Origin: a virus
Taxonomy: Duplodnaviria; Heunggongvirae; Uroviricota; Caudoviricetes
Length of the DNA stretch: 47,928 nt
IMG/VR virus record: IMGVR_UViG_2541047918_000003
Direction: 5' to 3' (one strand)
Part shown: positions 31,152 through 40,347 of the stretch, piece after piece
Layout of the letters: each line of letters begins with the position of its first letter
Position numbering within the stretch: the first letter of the stretch is position 1
The notes under the pieces: generated by a model
The model's database searches: none
What the model saw: only the letters and a program-made list of their open reading frames with translations
Told to the model about the DNA's origin: nothing
Made by a program: the position numbers and the translations under genes

Positions 31152-31342
31152 GGACGCACCTCCGCCGTAGTTACGTATTTAACCGGGCTACCTTTCATTG
31201 AGATGGTTTCACACATCTCTGCCGCTTTCAGTTCCGCTGTTTTTCTGGATTTATAGCGACGGTGCCAGACAGATACATCCGTGCGAACTGATACATCGTT
31301 TCTGTATTCCGTAGTGGAGATGATGATTTCGTAACTAATCAT
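31148..31342 (-). CDS. hypothetical small protein (64 aa)
   Basis: Strong AAGGAGG RBS; ATGA overlaps with both neighbours. Confidence 0.45.
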   Translation of the reverse strand: MISYEIIISTTEYRNDVSVRTDVSVWHRRYKSRKTAELKAAEMCETISMKGSPVKYVTTAEVRP

Positions 31343-32205
31343 GGGCGAACCTCCTTGTCAGAACCATTCAGCCTAGAATCAACAAGTGCAGCGCCAAAAA
31401 CAGCATCACCAACACGGTCGTACAGTTTGCTAGCCAGCGGAGATTCAACGGCCTTAAGCATTGGATAAAGCTGGCTTGTCCAGATTTGATGGATTTCACG
31501 CAAATGCAGGTATACGCCTCTGGCGTTTCGTGCGACAGCTGACATATCAGACGCATCGGCACCTGATAAACTCTTCTCCATCAGGTTAAAGGCGTTGATG
31601 TATGCCTCTTTGAACCGGGCAGCACGTTTACCCGTGAAACCCATAGCAAGAAATGCAAAACCGTCTCGTGTGATTTGATAGCAAGGGAGCTTGCGTGTAC
31701 CGCCGTTCGGTTGATTTACCGAAATCGATGTCTCCGCAAAATTGCGGGCACAAAACTCTGGAGAACAATCCAAAATGCGAATCTTTTTCAGAACATCGTC
31801 ATGACGTTTAGAGAAGAAGTCAGCAACAGCCAAAGAAGATGTAACAGCCTGACCATCAACGATGGCAATTTCAGGTTGAGAGAGGGTTGGGAGAGTAGTC
31901 ATAGTGACAGCCCCGGTAGTCAGTTTTTTAGAAAACTCACCACATGGGACGCCAATCACAGAGGTGGTGAGACGTACAGGGTTGGCGTTACCGGAGACTA
32001 CCGAACCCGGCCCGACCGAAGTCGGCCCTGTACGCCCCACCATAATTTGGGCGTAGCAATGCTCATGACACGAAAAAACCGCATGAGCGCGGTTATGCTC
32101 AGTAATCAATTTCAGGACGCCAATCCCGGCACCCGCTTTATAAGGTGCGGAGACAGTGTAACGTCCCGAAATTGCAGAATCAATATTTGGTCTTGAAATG
32201 ATCAT
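31339..32205 (-). CDS. Rha-family phage regulatory protein; start uncertain (alternative ATG at 31902)
   Basis: Central motif AIVDGQAVTSSLAVADFFSKRHDDVLKKIR; no strong RBS at any candidate start. Confidence 0.55.
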   Translation of the reverse strand: MIISRPNIDSAISGRYTVSAPYKAGAGIGVLKLITEHNRAHAVFSCHEHCYAQIMVGRTGPTSVGPGSVVSGNANPVRLTTSVIGVPCGEFSKKLTTGAVTMTTLPTLSQPEIAIVDGQAVTSSLAVADFFSKRHDDVLKKIRILDCSPEFCARNFAETSISVNQPNGGTRKLPCYQITRDGFAFLAMGFTGKRAARFKEAYINAFNLMEKSLSGADASDMSAVARNARGVYLHLREIHQIWTSQLYPMLKAVESPLASKLYDRVGDAVFGAALVDSRLNGSDKEVRP

Positions 32206-32228: not shown

Positions 32229-32314
32229 TGTTCTTGGATGTTTCGGAGCCGTTTTATGCGAAACAGCTCCCCGTTATTGATGTTGAGTGAGCCGGGTTAC
32301 TCCCGGCTTTTTTT
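32229..32314 (+). ncRNA. candidate OOP-like antisense RNA
   Basis: Plus-strand terminator GCCGGG TTACT CCCGGC plus T7 (32291-32314) in a region of minus-strand genes; possible TTGAAA-N18-TATCTT promoter about 85 nt upstream. Confidence 0.3.
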
Positions 32315-33021
32315 CACCGCTGCCAACCAATAACCTGAAATAACCCCATTTTCGGGTGATACCAGCGAGTCCCTCGCGGTTCTGCTTCCTCCATAACCCG
32401 ATAAAAAGCAGCCATAAACGGTTCCACAGCAACAATTGCGCGACGTGACAACAATCCGTCCGGCGTCATGAACTCATGGGTGTCTGTAGGAATCTGATAG
32501 GCGTTCACCAGATTGCGGCATTTATCATCTGACAAACCGGTTTTTGCTTTCAGTTGGCGATATCCGGCATAGCCCTCACGAATAGTGCCCTTTTTAATTT
32601 GCTCGACTGTTTCAGCAACGTGGCTGACTTTTTCTTCCACCTGAGTGATCCGTTTCTGCTGACGAACTGCTTCAAGAGCCATCGCGGCAACCATTTCGAT
32701 TTCGCTCATTGGCTTACGGATCTGTTCTTCCAGTTCGCGCCAGCGATCTACCAGGCGAGCAGTGAATTCAGGACAGAGCTGTGCGACGACAATGATGCTG
32801 TCGCGCTTACCTTGTTCTCCTTCAAACAGGTAATGCTCATATTGAACTTTAAAACCTAAGTTATTGATTCTTTCGGAAACCTCAATTTGAGGAGACCGGA
32901 CAACGCCACCTTTGGCTAATGTTTCAATAGTGCGTTTCACATTGTCATGACGTTTACCCACCAGCTCTGCAATTTCAACGCTGGTCATGGATGCTTTGCC
33001 GTTAAAAATTGCGGTGTTCAT
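32314..33021 (-). CDS. Rha-family phage regulatory protein, antirepressor-like
   Basis: 235 aa; N-terminal motif TSVEIAELVGKRHDNVKRTIETL; AGGAGA RBS. Confidence 0.65.
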   Translation of the reverse strand: MNTAIFNGKASMTSVEIAELVGKRHDNVKRTIETLAKGGVVRSPQIEVSERINNLGFKVQYEHYLFEGEQGKRDSIIVVAQLCPEFTARLVDRWRELEEQIRKPMSEIEMVAAMALEAVRQQKRITQVEEKVSHVAETVEQIKKGTIREGYAGYRQLKAKTGLSDDKCRNLVNAYQIPTDTHEFMTPDGLLSRRAIVAVEPFMAAFYRVMEEAEPRGTRWYHPKMGLFQVIGWQR

Positions 33022-33245
33022 TGTTGGTCTCCTGTGGGCTTGTCATCTTCTGTATTCGCTAGACTTGGGTGTGTATATGGAATGCTCGTATCCAGATGAC
33101 AAAGAATGGCAACATCCTCCGGAACACCTCGCGTTTTCCACTTTCCAACACCTTGACTGCCACGAGGCCTTCCTTTCTTTGGGAACCTGCGACCAATAGC
33201 GGCATTGGTTTTAAATTGAATTTTTAATATTTCATAAAGGGTCAT
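33018..33245 (-). CDS. possible Cro-position early regulator
   Basis: 75-aa basic ORF, first on the minus strand after the operator region; weak RBS; no clear helix-turn-helix. Confidence 0.3.
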   Translation of the reverse strand: MTLYEILKIQFKTNAAIGRRFPKKGRPRGSQGVGKWKTRGVPEDVAILCHLDTSIPYTHPSLANTEDDKPTGDQQ

Positions 33246-33356
33246 TCTTTAGTCTCACACCAGATACTTTGTTATCCAACGATGTTAACCACAGGAACCC
33301 AAAGTATCAAGAAATTCTGTTACTTTAGTATCAACAGCCATGAGAGGAGAAGAAAA
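33246..33356. promoter_or_regulatory. right operator/promoter region (OR-like)
   Basis: 111-bp divergent region between the cro-like gene and cI with repeated GTATCAA/TTGATAC-type half-sites. Confidence 0.5.
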
Positions 33357-34013
33357 ATGAAGTCTTTAGGTGAACGTCTCATCAACGCACGGCAAAAAGC
33401 TGGGTTAACACAAGATGCGTTGGCTAAAAAAGCTGGGGTCACCAGAGTTGCAATCAGTAAAGCCGAGCAAGGCCTTACAAAAAGTTTCAACGGTGACACC
33501 CTTTTTAAAGTTGCAGCTGCACTGCAGTGTTCACCGCAGTGGCTTCAGAACGGAGATGAAAAAGATAAGCATTGGGAAAATAATGTTAAGAGCTGCCCAC
33601 AGAGAGACACAGCATACTCTTACCCTGTAATTAACTGGGTTCAGGCAGGATTATTCGCAACTTCTGGTGATGACTACAACATGTATGATCAGGATAATTG
33701 GAGGCATTCTGTAAAATACGCTGGTGAGAGGGGGTTCTGGCTGGAAGTGCACGGAGACTCAATGACTTCGCCCGTAGGAATAACATTTCCTGAAGGAATG
33801 TCGATCCTTGTCAACCCAGATAAAGAAGTTTTTTCAGGGTGTTACGTCATCGCCAGAAAAAAATCTACCAATGAAGCAACATTCAAAAAATATATTTCTG
33901 AAATGGGAAAGGCGTTTCTAAAGCCCCTTAATCCACAATATCCAATCATAGAAATGGACAATGATTGCGAAATAGTAGGTGTTGTGGTTGATGCCAGGTG
34001 GGATATTTTCTAA
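33357..34013 (+). CDS. cI: CI-like repressor (XRE helix-turn-helix plus S24 LexA-like peptidase)
   Basis: MKSLGERLINARQKAGLTQDALAKKAGV... helix-turn-helix; C-terminal peptidase-like domain; AGGAGA RBS. Confidence 0.85.
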   Translation: MKSLGERLINARQKAGLTQDALAKKAGVTRVAISKAEQGLTKSFNGDTLFKVAAALQCSPQWLQNGDEKDKHWENNVKSCPQRDTAYSYPVINWVQAGLFATSGDDYNMYDQDNWRHSVKYAGERGFWLEVHGDSMTSPVGITFPEGMSILVNPDKEVFSGCYVIARKKSTNEATFKKYISEMGKAFLKPLNPQYPIIEMDNDCEIVGVVVDARWDIF

Positions 34014-34029
34014 CCAGACACAAAACACA

Positions 34030-34100
34030 AAAAGAAACCAAAGTATCAAAAATCACTTGCCACACCTTGATACCTTAGTTACCATAAAACAAAGTTCGTA
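34030..34100. promoter_or_regulatory. left operator/promoter region (OL-like)
   Basis: Inverted GTATCAA ... TTGATAC pair matching the half-site seen in the OR region. Confidence 0.4.
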
Positions 34101-34116
34101 ACTGAGGTATCATCTC

Positions 34117-34533
34117 ATGATCAATAAAGCTACAACTCTTGACTGTCTCGAAGAACTGAAAAACCTCGGCAGCCTCATTACACTAATAGCAAAAGCAACA
34201 CCTGATGCTACGCTCTCTAGCGATATAGAGTCATGCGCAGGACTGGCATGGGATATGACAAATAGCATATCCAGAAAGCTATCGTCAGCAATGCTTTTAC
34301 AGAACAAAAATTCTGCAATCAACAACCGTCTTCGCACCCAACGCGAAGCCTGCGGCTTAACAACCGCCGAACTCGCCAGGCTGCTCGATCTCGATGAAGA
34401 AATTATCATCCAGTGGGAGAGCGGAGAGTATGAACCAACTATCAGTATGCTTATCCCACTGGCAAATATTCTTGGCTGCGATCCGATGTGGCTGTTAACT
34501 GGCGAAACGGCAGCAAAGGATATCTGCGCATGA
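34117..34533 (+). CDS. helix-turn-helix (XRE-type) protein with unknown N-terminal domain
   Basis: 138 aa; C-terminal GLTTAELARLLDLDEEIIIQWESGEYEPTISMLIPLANILGCDPMWLL; GAGGT RBS; first gene after the OL-like region. Confidence 0.6.
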   Translation: MINKATTLDCLEELKNLGSLITLIAKATPDATLSSDIESCAGLAWDMTNSISRKLSSAMLLQNKNSAINNRLRTQREACGLTTAELARLLDLDEEIIIQWESGEYEPTISMLIPLANILGCDPMWLLTGETAAKDICA

Positions 34534-34772
34534 AAAACTGTGATGCTTACCATATTTGTCTCATTGGTGAATTGCTTGATTTCATACAAAAAAGCACTGC
34601 GCGCAATAATAAAAATATAACATATGGTGATCTGGTAATAATTTCAGAGGATATAAAGAGCATCGCTCTTAAATTCAAGAGCGACGCGAGTATTGATGAC
34701 GCTATTTACGCTTATCTTGCGAAAATAATTGACGGATCCAAAATCCAGCCTCTGGATGAACCTCGTCAGTGA
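34530..34772 (+). CDS. hypothetical protein (80 aa)
   Basis: ATGA overlap with the upstream gene; AT-rich. Confidence 0.4.
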   Translation: MKNCDAYHICLIGELLDFIQKSTARNNKNITYGDLVIISEDIKSIALKFKSDASIDDAIYAYLAKIIDGSKIQPLDEPRQ

Positions 34773-34929
34773 AAAACTCCTTTGATGAAGATGAGAACTG
34801 CTTCATAAACTTTACTTTATCTTCAGGTGAAACTACCTGACGAATTAATGCGGAGATAGCAACTTTGTGCCAAATTAATTCTTTTTTGAGTTCTGAAATC
34901 TCTTTTTCGAGTTGCTCTGCGTTAATCAT
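34702..34929 (-). CDS. hypothetical coiled-coil protein (75 aa), convergent with 34530-34772
   Basis: Strong GGAGG RBS 5 nt before the ATG at 34929; overlaps the neighbour's 3' end by 71 nt. Confidence 0.4.
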   Translation of the reverse strand: MINAEQLEKEISELKKELIWHKVAISALIRQVVSPEDKVKFMKQFSSSSKEFFTDEVHPEAGFWIRQLFSQDKRK

Positions 34930-39033: not shown

Positions 39034-40347
39034 ATGGATAAAGTCAAATATCCAACAGGCGTCGAAAACCACGGCGGCACATTACGCATCTGGTTTAATT
39101 TTAAAGGTAAACGTGTCAGGGAAAATCTTGGTGTCCCTGACACTGCCAAGAACAGGAAGATCGCCGGGGAACTGCGGACATCAGTATGTTTTGCCATCCG
39201 CACAGGAAGCTTTGATTATGCTGCACAGTTCCCTGACTCCCCCAACCTTCAGGCTTTTGGGGTAAGTAAAAAAGAAATTACGGTGAAGGAACTTGAAGAA
39301 AAGTGGCTGGATCTGAAACGAATGGAAATCTCTGCAAATGCATTCAATCGCTATGAATCCGTTGCAAGAACGATGGTTCCGAAAATTGGAGGCAGTAAAC
39401 TGGTGTCATCGGTAACCAAAGAGGAATTGCTGTATATCAGGAAAGATTTGCTGACCGGGTATCAGAATTCAACGAAAAACAAAGCAGCAGCAAAAGGACG
39501 GAGCGTCGTTACTGTAAATTATTACATGACGACAATCGCTGGAATGTTTCAGTTTGCTGCAGATCACGGTTACTTAGAAGCAAATCCCTTCCAGGGAATT
39601 AAGCCTCTTAAAAGAGCCAGGGCAGAGCCAGATCCGCTAACTCGTGACGAATTTATTCGCCTGATAGATGCTTGCCGACATCAGCAGACGAAAAACCTGT
39701 GGTCATTGGCTGTGTACACAGGAATGCGTCACGGTGAACTGGTCTCCCTGGCCTGGGAAGATATCGATCTGAAGGCAGGAACAATTACCATCAGGCGCAA
39801 TTATACGAAACTTGGTGAGTTCACTCTACCGAAAACTGAAGCAAGCACAAACAGGGTTGTGCACCTTATCCAGCCCGCTATCAGTGTCCTGAAAAATCAG
39901 GCTGAAATGACAAGACTGGGTAAGCAGTACAACATCAAGGTGCAACTACGTGAATATGGACGTTCAGTGAACCATGAATGTACTTTCGTGTTTAACCCTC
40001 AAGTGGTTAGAAAAAGCGAACAGGTAGGTTTTGTCTACAAAGTCGATTCTGTAGGTGACTCATGGGAAACAGCCATTAAGCGTGCAGGGATCAGGCATCG
40101 AAAGGCATACCAGTCACGACACACTTATGCGTGCTGGTCATTATCTGCCGGAGCAAACCCAAGCTTCATTGCCAGCCAGATGGGCCATGCAAGTGCCCAG
40201 ATGGTATTCAATGTATACGGAGCATGGATGACTGACAGCAATGCAGAACAGATCGCAATGCTGAATCAGAAGCTGACAGATTATGTCCCAATGATGCCCC
40301 ATAGTCACCAAAGTGACACCAGAGGCTTATTAAAATCAGTAAGTTAA
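39034..40347 (+). CDS. int: tyrosine integrase
   Basis: 437 aa; conserved Arg, His-x-x-Arg (SRHTYACW) and C-terminal Tyr; GGAGG RBS; stop abuts the host gene remnant. Confidence 0.9.
   Translation: MDKVKYPTGVENHGGTLRIWFNFKGKRVRENLGVPDTAKNRKIAGELRTSVCFAIRTGSFDYAAQFPDSPNLQAFGVSKKEITVKELEEKWLDLKRMEISANAFNRYESVARTMVPKIGGSKLVSSVTKEELLYIRKDLLTGYQNSTKNKAAAKGRSVVTVNYYMTTIAGMFQFAADHGYLEANPFQGIKPLKRARAEPDPLTRDEFIRLIDACRHQQTKNLWSLAVYTGMRHGELVSLAWEDIDLKAGTITIRRNYTKLGEFTLPKTEASTNRVVHLIQPAISVLKNQAEMTRLGKQYNIKVQLREYGRSVNHECTFVFNPQVVRKSEQVGFVYKVDSVGDSWETAIKRAGIRHRKAYQSRHTYACWSLSAGANPSFIASQMGHASAQMVFNVYGAWMTDSNAEQIAMLNQKLTDYVPMMPHSHQSDTRGLLKSVS

Follow-up and report, generated by a model that had tools for sequence, protein, structure and literature searches.

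A probable lambda-type immunity switch in a phiP27-like prophage, with predicted operators on both flanks of cI and a diverged P22-type Cro

The stretch of DNA analyzed here (hereafter the window) is the 47,928-nucleotide virus record IMGVR_UViG_2541047918_000003 from IMG/VR. It carries a cI repressor gene and, divergent from it, an open reading frame (ORF) of 75 amino acids at the position where lambda has cro. Judging from the sequence and its comparison between related loci, six 14-bp imperfect dyads, three on each side of cI, are probably the operators of this repressor, and the whole locus is probably the immunity switch of a phiP27-type temperate Escherichia coli prophage, built on the lambda plan. 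Positions 32900-34600 have 95% nucleotide identity to phiP27, a Shiga toxin (Stx) 2e phage, and 85-86% to several Stx1a and Stx2a phages, while positions 33000-34200 are 100% identical to the E. coli E100341 chromosome. The same six sites are present in phiP27. In the record of that phage (NC_003356; genes L10-L12), L11 is labeled only as a putative lambda repressor or helix-turn-helix (HTH) protein, L12 is hypothetical, and operators are unannotated. The integrase gene of the window is at 39034-40347, and the structural genes are further left on the minus strand.

Six dyads flank the repressor gene

The sites follow the pattern GWWAC-N4-GTATC, an imperfect dyad whose ideal form and class consensus is GATAC-N4-GTATC. 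Sites a, b and c are between the cro-like gene and cI, in a region equivalent to the operator region OR of lambda, and sites d, e and f are past the 3' end of cI, at the equivalent of OL (Table 1). The sites, their clustering, conservation, fixed positions and promoter overlap, their covariation with the repressor and the protein homologies described below were all computed. The hexamer RGTATC occurs 57 times in the window when both strands are counted, and six of these occurrences are in the 111 + 103 bp that flank cI, where 0.26 would be expected (Poisson P ~3e-7). Of the strict pattern GWWMCNNNNGTATC, the window contains five exact copies, every one of them in the same two stretches, and site a is one mismatch away from this pattern. 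The 9-mer given in a preliminary description of this DNA, AAGTATCAA, is not enriched window-wide (17 matches with at most one mismatch, vs 10.9 expected), so the signal is in the clustering rather than in the overall count.

That description had reported GTATC-type motifs on both sides of cI, between 33246 and 34100. They are indeed found there, with site f (34098-34111) running just past the end of the interval. It had also taken a pair of 7-mer half-sites as the unit, and this has to be revised. The unit is a 14-bp imperfect dyad of which GTATC(AA) is only the better half: each GTATC has a partner half at a fixed 4-bp spacing, and in the window one of the two halves is usually weakened to GTAAC, GAAAC or GTTAC. 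The proposal that the motifs form inverted pairs is correct for d and e, and for a relative to b and c. However, b and c are in direct orientation, as is f, and the long-range pairs belong to separate operators.

Further support for the dyad comes from site a, which reads GATACTTAAGTATC, a perfect palindrome, in the Stx2 phage L002 and has its consensus half on the other side in other genera (GAAACTATTGTATC). Because a palindrome exists in L002 and the strong half switches sides between genera, both halves of site a must be under the same constraint. The related loci fall into two classes, set apart by their repressors and half-sites (see below). In the 33 distinct 14-mers of class I (13 loci), the half-site read from the outside in has G in 63 of 66 cases, A in 52, T in 43, A in 61 and C in 60, followed by a variable AT-rich center. 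As a sequence pattern, the 5+4+5 architecture is fixed across 48 distinct sites of both classes, and some relatives have perfect palindromes.

Conservation of the sites and of the predicted promoters they overlap

Sixteen loci were compared: the window, phiP27, two Stx phages, five E. coli chromosomes (71-96% identity), six loci from other genera reached via the Cro-like protein (Providencia, Klebsiella, Photorhabdus, Salmonella, Citrobacter and Yersinia) and one metagenome contig. A profile scan of genome contigs with the cI alignment yielded only distant relatives, mostly from Pseudomonas, at 36-43% identity and below. The divergent pair of cro-like gene and cI is present in 16 of the 16 loci, with an OR of 104-115 bp (111 bp in the window). 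All 16 have three sites in OR, at about 17, 49 and 73 from the cro start codon, and after cI there are two or three sites per locus, depending on the genus. Site f is found only where a gene follows closely, that is in the E. coli loci and Photorhabdus, and is absent in Klebsiella, Salmonella, Citrobacter and Yersinia. In the conservation alignment of 12 class I loci (E. coli prophages and phages, Klebsiella, Photorhabdus, Salmonella, Citrobacter and Yersinia), column identity is 0.82 for a, 0.96 for b and 0.92 for c in OR, and 0.88 for d, 0.95 for e and 0.75 for f in OL, compared to 0.55 for the non-site columns of either region. Lack of the motif in prophages with the same repressor had been named beforehand as the observation that would speak against operators; in these prophages, the sites are kept.

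Two predicted sigma-70 promoters accompany the sites. The PR-like promoter, which reads leftward into the cro-like gene, scores highest among the minus-strand candidates in each of the 16 loci, always at the same position. On the other side of cI, the predicted PL-like promoter shares the orientation of cI, as its counterpart in lambda does. Its TTGnnn-17-TAnnnT pattern is at the aligned position in all 16 loci, with a hexamer column identity of 0.88, and it is the top-scoring plus-strand candidate in 13 of them (second in L004, third in L085, and outside the top three in L089). The lambda-like OR/OL layout that had been suggested is thus supported: cI has three sites on either side, and the sites overlap conserved predicted promoters, which point away from the cro-cI junction and from the 3' end of cI.

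Table 1. Coordinates of the genes, predicted operators and predicted promoters of the immunity region in the window
Feature	Coordinates	Strand	Description
cI repressor gene	33357..34013	+	218 aa; HTH_3 N-domain (434/P22-c2-like) and lambda-cI-like Peptidase_S24 C-domain (Pfam, PDB sequence search)
cro-like gene	33018..33245	-	75 aa, phrog_4749; first gene of the PR-like operon; predicted P22-Cro-type HTH with 5-residue insertion in the turn
Putative operator a (OR1-like)	33263..33276	.	GATACTTTGTTATC; over predicted PR start and early leader
Putative operator b (OR2-like)	33295..33308	.	GAACCCAAAGTATC; overlaps PR -35 hexamer and spacer
Putative operator c (OR3-like)	33319..33332	.	GTTACTTTAGTATC; holds the best, weak, candidate -10 (TAGTAT, 33326-33331) for the cI maintenance promoter
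Putative operator d (OL, distal)	34034..34047	.	GAAACCAAAGTATC; upstream of PL-like -35
Putative operator e (OL)	34069..34082	.	GATACCTTAGTTAC; over PL spacer and start of -10
Putative operator f (OL, proximal)	34098..34111	.	GTAACTGAGGTATC; about +6 to +19 of PL, overlaps Shine-Dalgarno of the next gene
Predicted PR-like promoter	33282..33310	-	-35 TTGATA (33310..33305), 17-nt spacer, -10 TAACAT (33287..33282); predicted start near 33275
Predicted PL-like promoter	34057..34085	+	-35 TTGCCA, 17-nt spacer, -10 TACCAT; predicted start near 34092
Second gene of PR-like operon	32314..33021	-	Rha/anti-repressor-like; start overlaps cro stop as ATGA
First gene of PL-like operon	34117..34533	+	138 aa, C-terminal HTH_3, homologue of phiP27 L10 (domain match, homology)

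The repressor and its covariation with the motif

The cI gene is preceded by a Shine-Dalgarno sequence, AGGAG, at 33345-33349. A longer ORF beginning at 33282 is a mechanical extension. The protein matches HTH_3 (E 7e-15) and Peptidase_S24 (E 3e-22) in Pfam. In a PDB sequence search, its C-terminal two-thirds match the lambda repressor structure 3bdn (E 3e-34), and the alignment with lambda cI places in register the cleavage motif VQA|G (VQA|GLF), the serine of G(D/N)SM (GDSM here) and the lysine of TFKK. The N-domain is nearest to P22 c2 (E 3e-9) and 434 Cro (E 8e-9), with 434 repressor at E 1.5e-4.

The sites appear to track this protein, the operator sequence changing with the recognition helix of the repressor. 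In class I, helix 3 of cI and the following loop read V(T/S)RVAISKAE(Q/L)GLTK(S/N)FN and are paired with GATAC half-sites. Class II consists of E. coli 2013C-3033, Providencia heimbachae and one metagenome contig, whose cI is only about 51% identical to that of the window. Here the same segment reads VSRVTISKIELGDSQDTRS (SRVTISK...DSQDTRS) and is paired with GAAAC/GAAAT half-sites at the same positions. Examples are GAAACCTAGATTTC and GTAACCTAGGTTTC, and a GATAC half is found in none of the class II sites. At position 3 of the half-site, the ratio of T to A is 43:21 in class I and 3:25 in class II, with a Fisher P of 7e-7 that is only indicative because the loci are not independent. The distinct specificity that the preliminary description had ascribed to this repressor is therefore in line with the comparison, since the sites change when the recognition helix of cI changes. 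The Cro-like protein hardly varies between the two classes in its predicted recognition region, VGKWKxRGVPEDVAILCH.

The gene at the Cro position

Because it is conserved in 16 loci and its substitutions are concentrated at third codon positions, the ORF at the Cro position is a real gene. Substitutions relative to the window are distributed over the three codon positions as, for example, 11/8/34 in Klebsiella. The family comprises 42 protein clusters, all more than 60% identical, and every named source is a species of Enterobacterales. The ORF had been described as basic, with a weak ribosome-binding site and no obvious HTH. Its isoelectric point (pI) is indeed 9.5 for the whole protein and 10.2 for residues 1-60, and the Shine-Dalgarno sequence is weak in the window (GAGA, 7 nt upstream) and better in relatives (GAGGA in L002). 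The ORF likewise has no match in Pfam (E <= 0.1), NCBIfam or PADLOC, and in PHROGs it matches only an unnamed family. When 37 members of the Cro-like family were scanned against Pfam at E <= 10, no P22_Cro was found, only faint matches to Phage_CI_repr. A PDB sequence search with the profile of close relatives (A4) returned only noise, the best match being topoisomerase I at E 0.8.

The same description had left the identity of the lytic-side regulator open, and the ORF can now be placed: profile comparisons predict a diverged P22-Cro-type protein, with the HTH turn expanded by a basic PKKGR insertion. A search of 1.8 billion proteins with profile A5 retrieved ten distant relatives (P0047-P0056; E 1.5e-11 to 4e-4) that have a canonical FGV(T/S)RxAVSxWK helix-turn-helix. 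Seven of these ten match Pfam P22_Cro (PF14549), although only P0052 passes the cut-off (31.2 vs 30.2 bits). The profile of the distant relatives (A6) matches P22 Cro (1rzs) at E 3.6e-5, and A5 aligns with A6 in hhalign at a probability of 99.7% (E 5e-26), with a single gap of five residues. The assignment is thus transitive, as A5 matches A6 and A6 matches P22 Cro. A direct hhalign comparison of A5 with a P22 Cro sequence gave the expected alignment at a non-significant probability of 2.9%, and was not used as evidence.

The five-residue gap corresponds to a basic insertion, PKKGR or PRRGK (residues 22-26), that the whole phrog_4749 family carries exactly in the HTH turn as compared to the canonical relatives. 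The AlphaFold2 model, built from a 37-sequence alignment, is helical, with a mean predicted local distance difference test (pLDDT) score of 86.8 and values above 90 for residues 1-60, and it renders the PKKGR insertion as a structured loop with high confidence. When the model was submitted to Foldseek, the best PDB matches were Cro proteins, XPH1 at E 0.65 and Xfaso 1 at E 4.4, neither of them significant alone. Foldseek matches in BFVD were YdaS-like phage proteins, with probabilities of 0.98 (E 0.07) and 0.91, also not significant alone.

A model of the switch

From the arrangement of sites, promoters and genes, a switch can be proposed in which we infer repressor binding, order of occupancy, cooperativity or looping, the position of the cI maintenance promoter (PRM) and the targets of Cro. 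During lysogeny, cI dimers would bind the 14-bp quasi-palindromic operators. In OR, cI at a (the PR start) and b (the PR -35 and spacer) would shut down the leftward operon, which contains cro, two Rha/Ant-like genes and the replication genes. Since site c is over the only plausible -10 of the promoter of cI itself, it is likely to be a site of negative autoregulation. In OL, cI at e (the spacer and -10) and f (the early transcribed region and ribosome-binding site) would shut down PL, which reads via the HTH gene toward xis and int. Site d, the lambda-like C-domain and an OR-OL distance of about 750 bp together make cooperative binding plausible, possibly with looping between OR and OL. Upon DNA damage, RecA would stimulate the self-cleavage of cI at Ala97-Gly98, releasing PR and PL. 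Cro, the first PR product, with its enlarged basic HTH turn, would presumably then bind the same operators and lock the phage into lytic growth.

Several points weigh against this model. The sites are predicted from sequence, and literature searches on phiP27 operators, on the phiP27 immunity region and on the motif strings returned nothing relevant, neither a description of the operators nor a named Cro. The E. coli loci are closely related and hence are not independent samples, and class II consists of three loci only. Site spacings, 32 + 24 bp in OR and 35 + 29 bp in OL, are unlike those of lambda. At site b, TT+GATAC/GAAAC is at once the -35 hexamer of PR, so that the conservation of this site is partly that of the promoter. 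Between the two classes there are also differences in the first third of the Cro-like proteins (residues 9-31), and covariation alone is hence insufficient to assign the sites exclusively to cI. Finally, the promoter search of the loci found no convincing PRM. GTATCA-16-TAGTAT comes out best in the E. coli loci, with a score of only 4.4; its -10 falls within site c, and site b covers its -35. The lambda mode of PRM activation is unsupported, because site b would be centered near -36, whereas OR2 of lambda is at -42 of PRM. It is conceivable, though rather unlikely, that the switch departs from lambda in two linked ways. Cro would be a helix-loop-helix protein whose PKKGR/PRRGK loop touches additional DNA or shifts the choice of operators. 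The cI promoter, with a -35 back-to-back with that of PR, would lack the activating geometry of lambda, and the level of cI might then depend on competition between the two promoters, or on read-through, instead of direct activation.

Other ligands and other readings of the motif

The sites might be real and yet serve mainly or only the Cro-like protein, or the downstream HTH protein regulating its own gene, with cI acting elsewhere. We consider this improbable. Both proteins are predicted DNA binders, sites d-f are directly upstream of the HTH gene, and as noted the Cro-like proteins of class II differ from those of class I in residues 9-31. The motif, however, is on both flanks of cI. The HTH gene is absent in Klebsiella, Salmonella, Citrobacter and Yersinia, which nevertheless keep d and e, and the same HTH module is found in phi467 and PhiR49_2 behind an unrelated cI, with ATCAAGT/ACTTGAT repeats on both flanks. 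The motif therefore cannot belong to the downstream HTH gene, and its assignment to that gene was rejected. As for Cro, its recognition region remains essentially invariant across the classes, whereas helix 3 of cI and the loop after it change with the motif. Moreover, a Cro that shares the sites is expected if cI is the main ligand, too.

Two further readings concern the motif itself. In one, two inverted 7-bp elements far from each other, GTATCAA...TTGATAC at a distance of 17-31 bp, would together make up the operator, with each pair bound by one dimer or by looping. Such pairs do exist, as the arms of d and e are 14 nt long, 86% complementary and 17 nt apart, and GATAC of site a faces GTATC of site b across 31 nt. 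But b and c are direct repeats, no distant partner exists for f, and every GTATC has a partner half 4 bp off. The 14-bp palindromes point the same way, with a perfect one at site a of L002 and near-perfect ones at the class II sites GAAACCTAGATTTC and GAAAGTTTTCTTTC. The N-domain of cI is also homologous to the HTH domains of 434 and P22 c2, which bind compact dyads of 14-18 bp. This leaves the long-range pair a very small chance. The other reading dispenses with operators altogether: TTGATAC/GTATCAA would be -35-like hexamers and AT-rich intergenic sequence kept by promoter function or recent descent. It can draw on the fact that TTGATA of site b is the PR -35 hexamer, on the unremarkable window-wide count of the 9-mer, and on the 85-100% identity of the E. 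coli loci over the region. Yet a -35 is supplied by only one of the six sites, and the other five (a, c, d, e and f) are conserved although they have no such function. The sites are also conserved in five other named genera while the flanking columns drop to 0.55 identity, and in the three loci with a different helix 3 the motif shifts coherently at all positions. We give this last reading next to no credence, and retain cI operators as the probable function of the sites.

Comparison with lambda, 434 and P22

The resemblance to lambda lies mainly in the layout. In both, cI and cro diverge across a region of about 110 bp with three operators, a second operator cluster past the 3' end of cI controls (here, by prediction) a promoter reading in the direction of cI, and the C-domain of the repressor is homologous, with the Ala-Gly cleavage site and the Ser and Lys residues aligned. 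The differences are in the parts. The predicted operators are 14 bp long and of another sequence, whereas those of lambda are 17 bp, a textbook figure, and the N-domain of the repressor is 434/P22-c2-like. Between the cI stop and OL there are only about 20 bp and no genes of the rexAB type, and the OR-OL distance is about 750 bp, compared to the textbook value of 2.4 kb in lambda. The first PL gene encodes an HTH protein rather than an N-like antiterminator, and Cro is of the all-alpha P22 type.

With phage 434, the system shares the HTH_3 family of the N-domain and 14-bp dyads in which the outer bases are contacted and the AT-rich center is not conserved. It differs in having a GATAC half-site with a 4-bp center instead of ACAA with a 6-bp center (ACAA-N6-TTGT), a recognition helix TRVAISK instead of TQQSIEQ, and a clearly lambda-like C-domain. 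With P22 Cro, Xfaso 1 Cro (PF14549; 1rzs, 3bd1) and the YdaS-like proteins, the 75-residue protein shares a profile link via relatives and a gene divergent from cI. It differs from P22 Cro in lacking a direct Pfam or PDB sequence match and in having PKKGR where a tight HTH turn is expected. In this locus, an N-domain like those of 434 and P22, with 14-bp operators, occurs together with a C-domain like that of lambda and a Cro of the P22 type, and OL abuts the cI stop.

This is another variation on lambda and 434 and not a new principle, the insertion in the HTH turn of Cro being its one mildly unusual element. It should nonetheless be useful for the biology of Stx phages. Stx1a-, Stx2a- and Stx2e-converting phages belong to the phiP27 group, and their release of toxin is under the control of the repressor; for this prophage group the comparison provides a putative operator map and two predicted immunity specificities, one of GATAC type and the other of GAAAC type. 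It also gives a name, Cro of the phiP27-group phages, to phrog_4749, a conserved gene formerly called hypothetical.

Neighboring genes and additional observations

The stop codon of cro overlaps the next start codon as ATGA (33018-33021, minus strand), which suggests translational coupling of the two genes. The gene that starts there is followed by a second one of Rha/Ant type, with an Ash domain (32205..31339), and both follow cro where lambda has cII, O and P. On the other side, the 138-residue gene of the PL-like operon is a mosaic. Its HTH half (about 34330-34505) has 92-99% nucleotide identity to genes behind unrelated cI in phi467, PhiR49_2 and some Stx2a phages. The N-terminal half is variable, with relatives of 138, 167 or 216 amino acids. 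PHROGs labels the HTH module as a "CII-like regulator", and one record says DicA. Beyond it, a 75-residue ORF at 34702-34929 (minus strand; phrog_20080), coiled-coil-like and with no function found, is convergent to the PL-like operon and overlaps the end of an 80-residue ORF on the other strand (34530-34772).

In the non-E. coli loci L083, L085 and L087-L090, a GC-rich hairpin with a T-run, forming an intrinsic terminator, directly follows the cI stop. No terminator follows it (34014-34033) in the window or in the other class I E. coli loci shown in the OL alignment. Without one in the window, cI transcripts may read through OL into the HTH gene at 34117-34533.

A strong plus-strand candidate promoter, TTGTAT-17-TAGAAT, is present in the OR of Klebsiella, Salmonella, Citrobacter and Yersinia (L085 and L088-L090), about 21-53 from the cro start. 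It interleaves with PR, its predicted start is inside site b, and in the window it is degraded to TTGTTA-17-CAGGAA. It could drive cI in competition with PR.

In phi467 (L092, 303-436 and 1127-1272) and PhiR49_2 (L093, 275-407 and 1098-1242), the unrelated cI between the ATCAAGT/ACTTGAT repeats has 229 amino acids and is followed by a strong TTGACA promoter, giving a different immunity type with the same layout. This comparison shows that a cI flanked by its own operators and then followed by this HTH gene is a modular arrangement.

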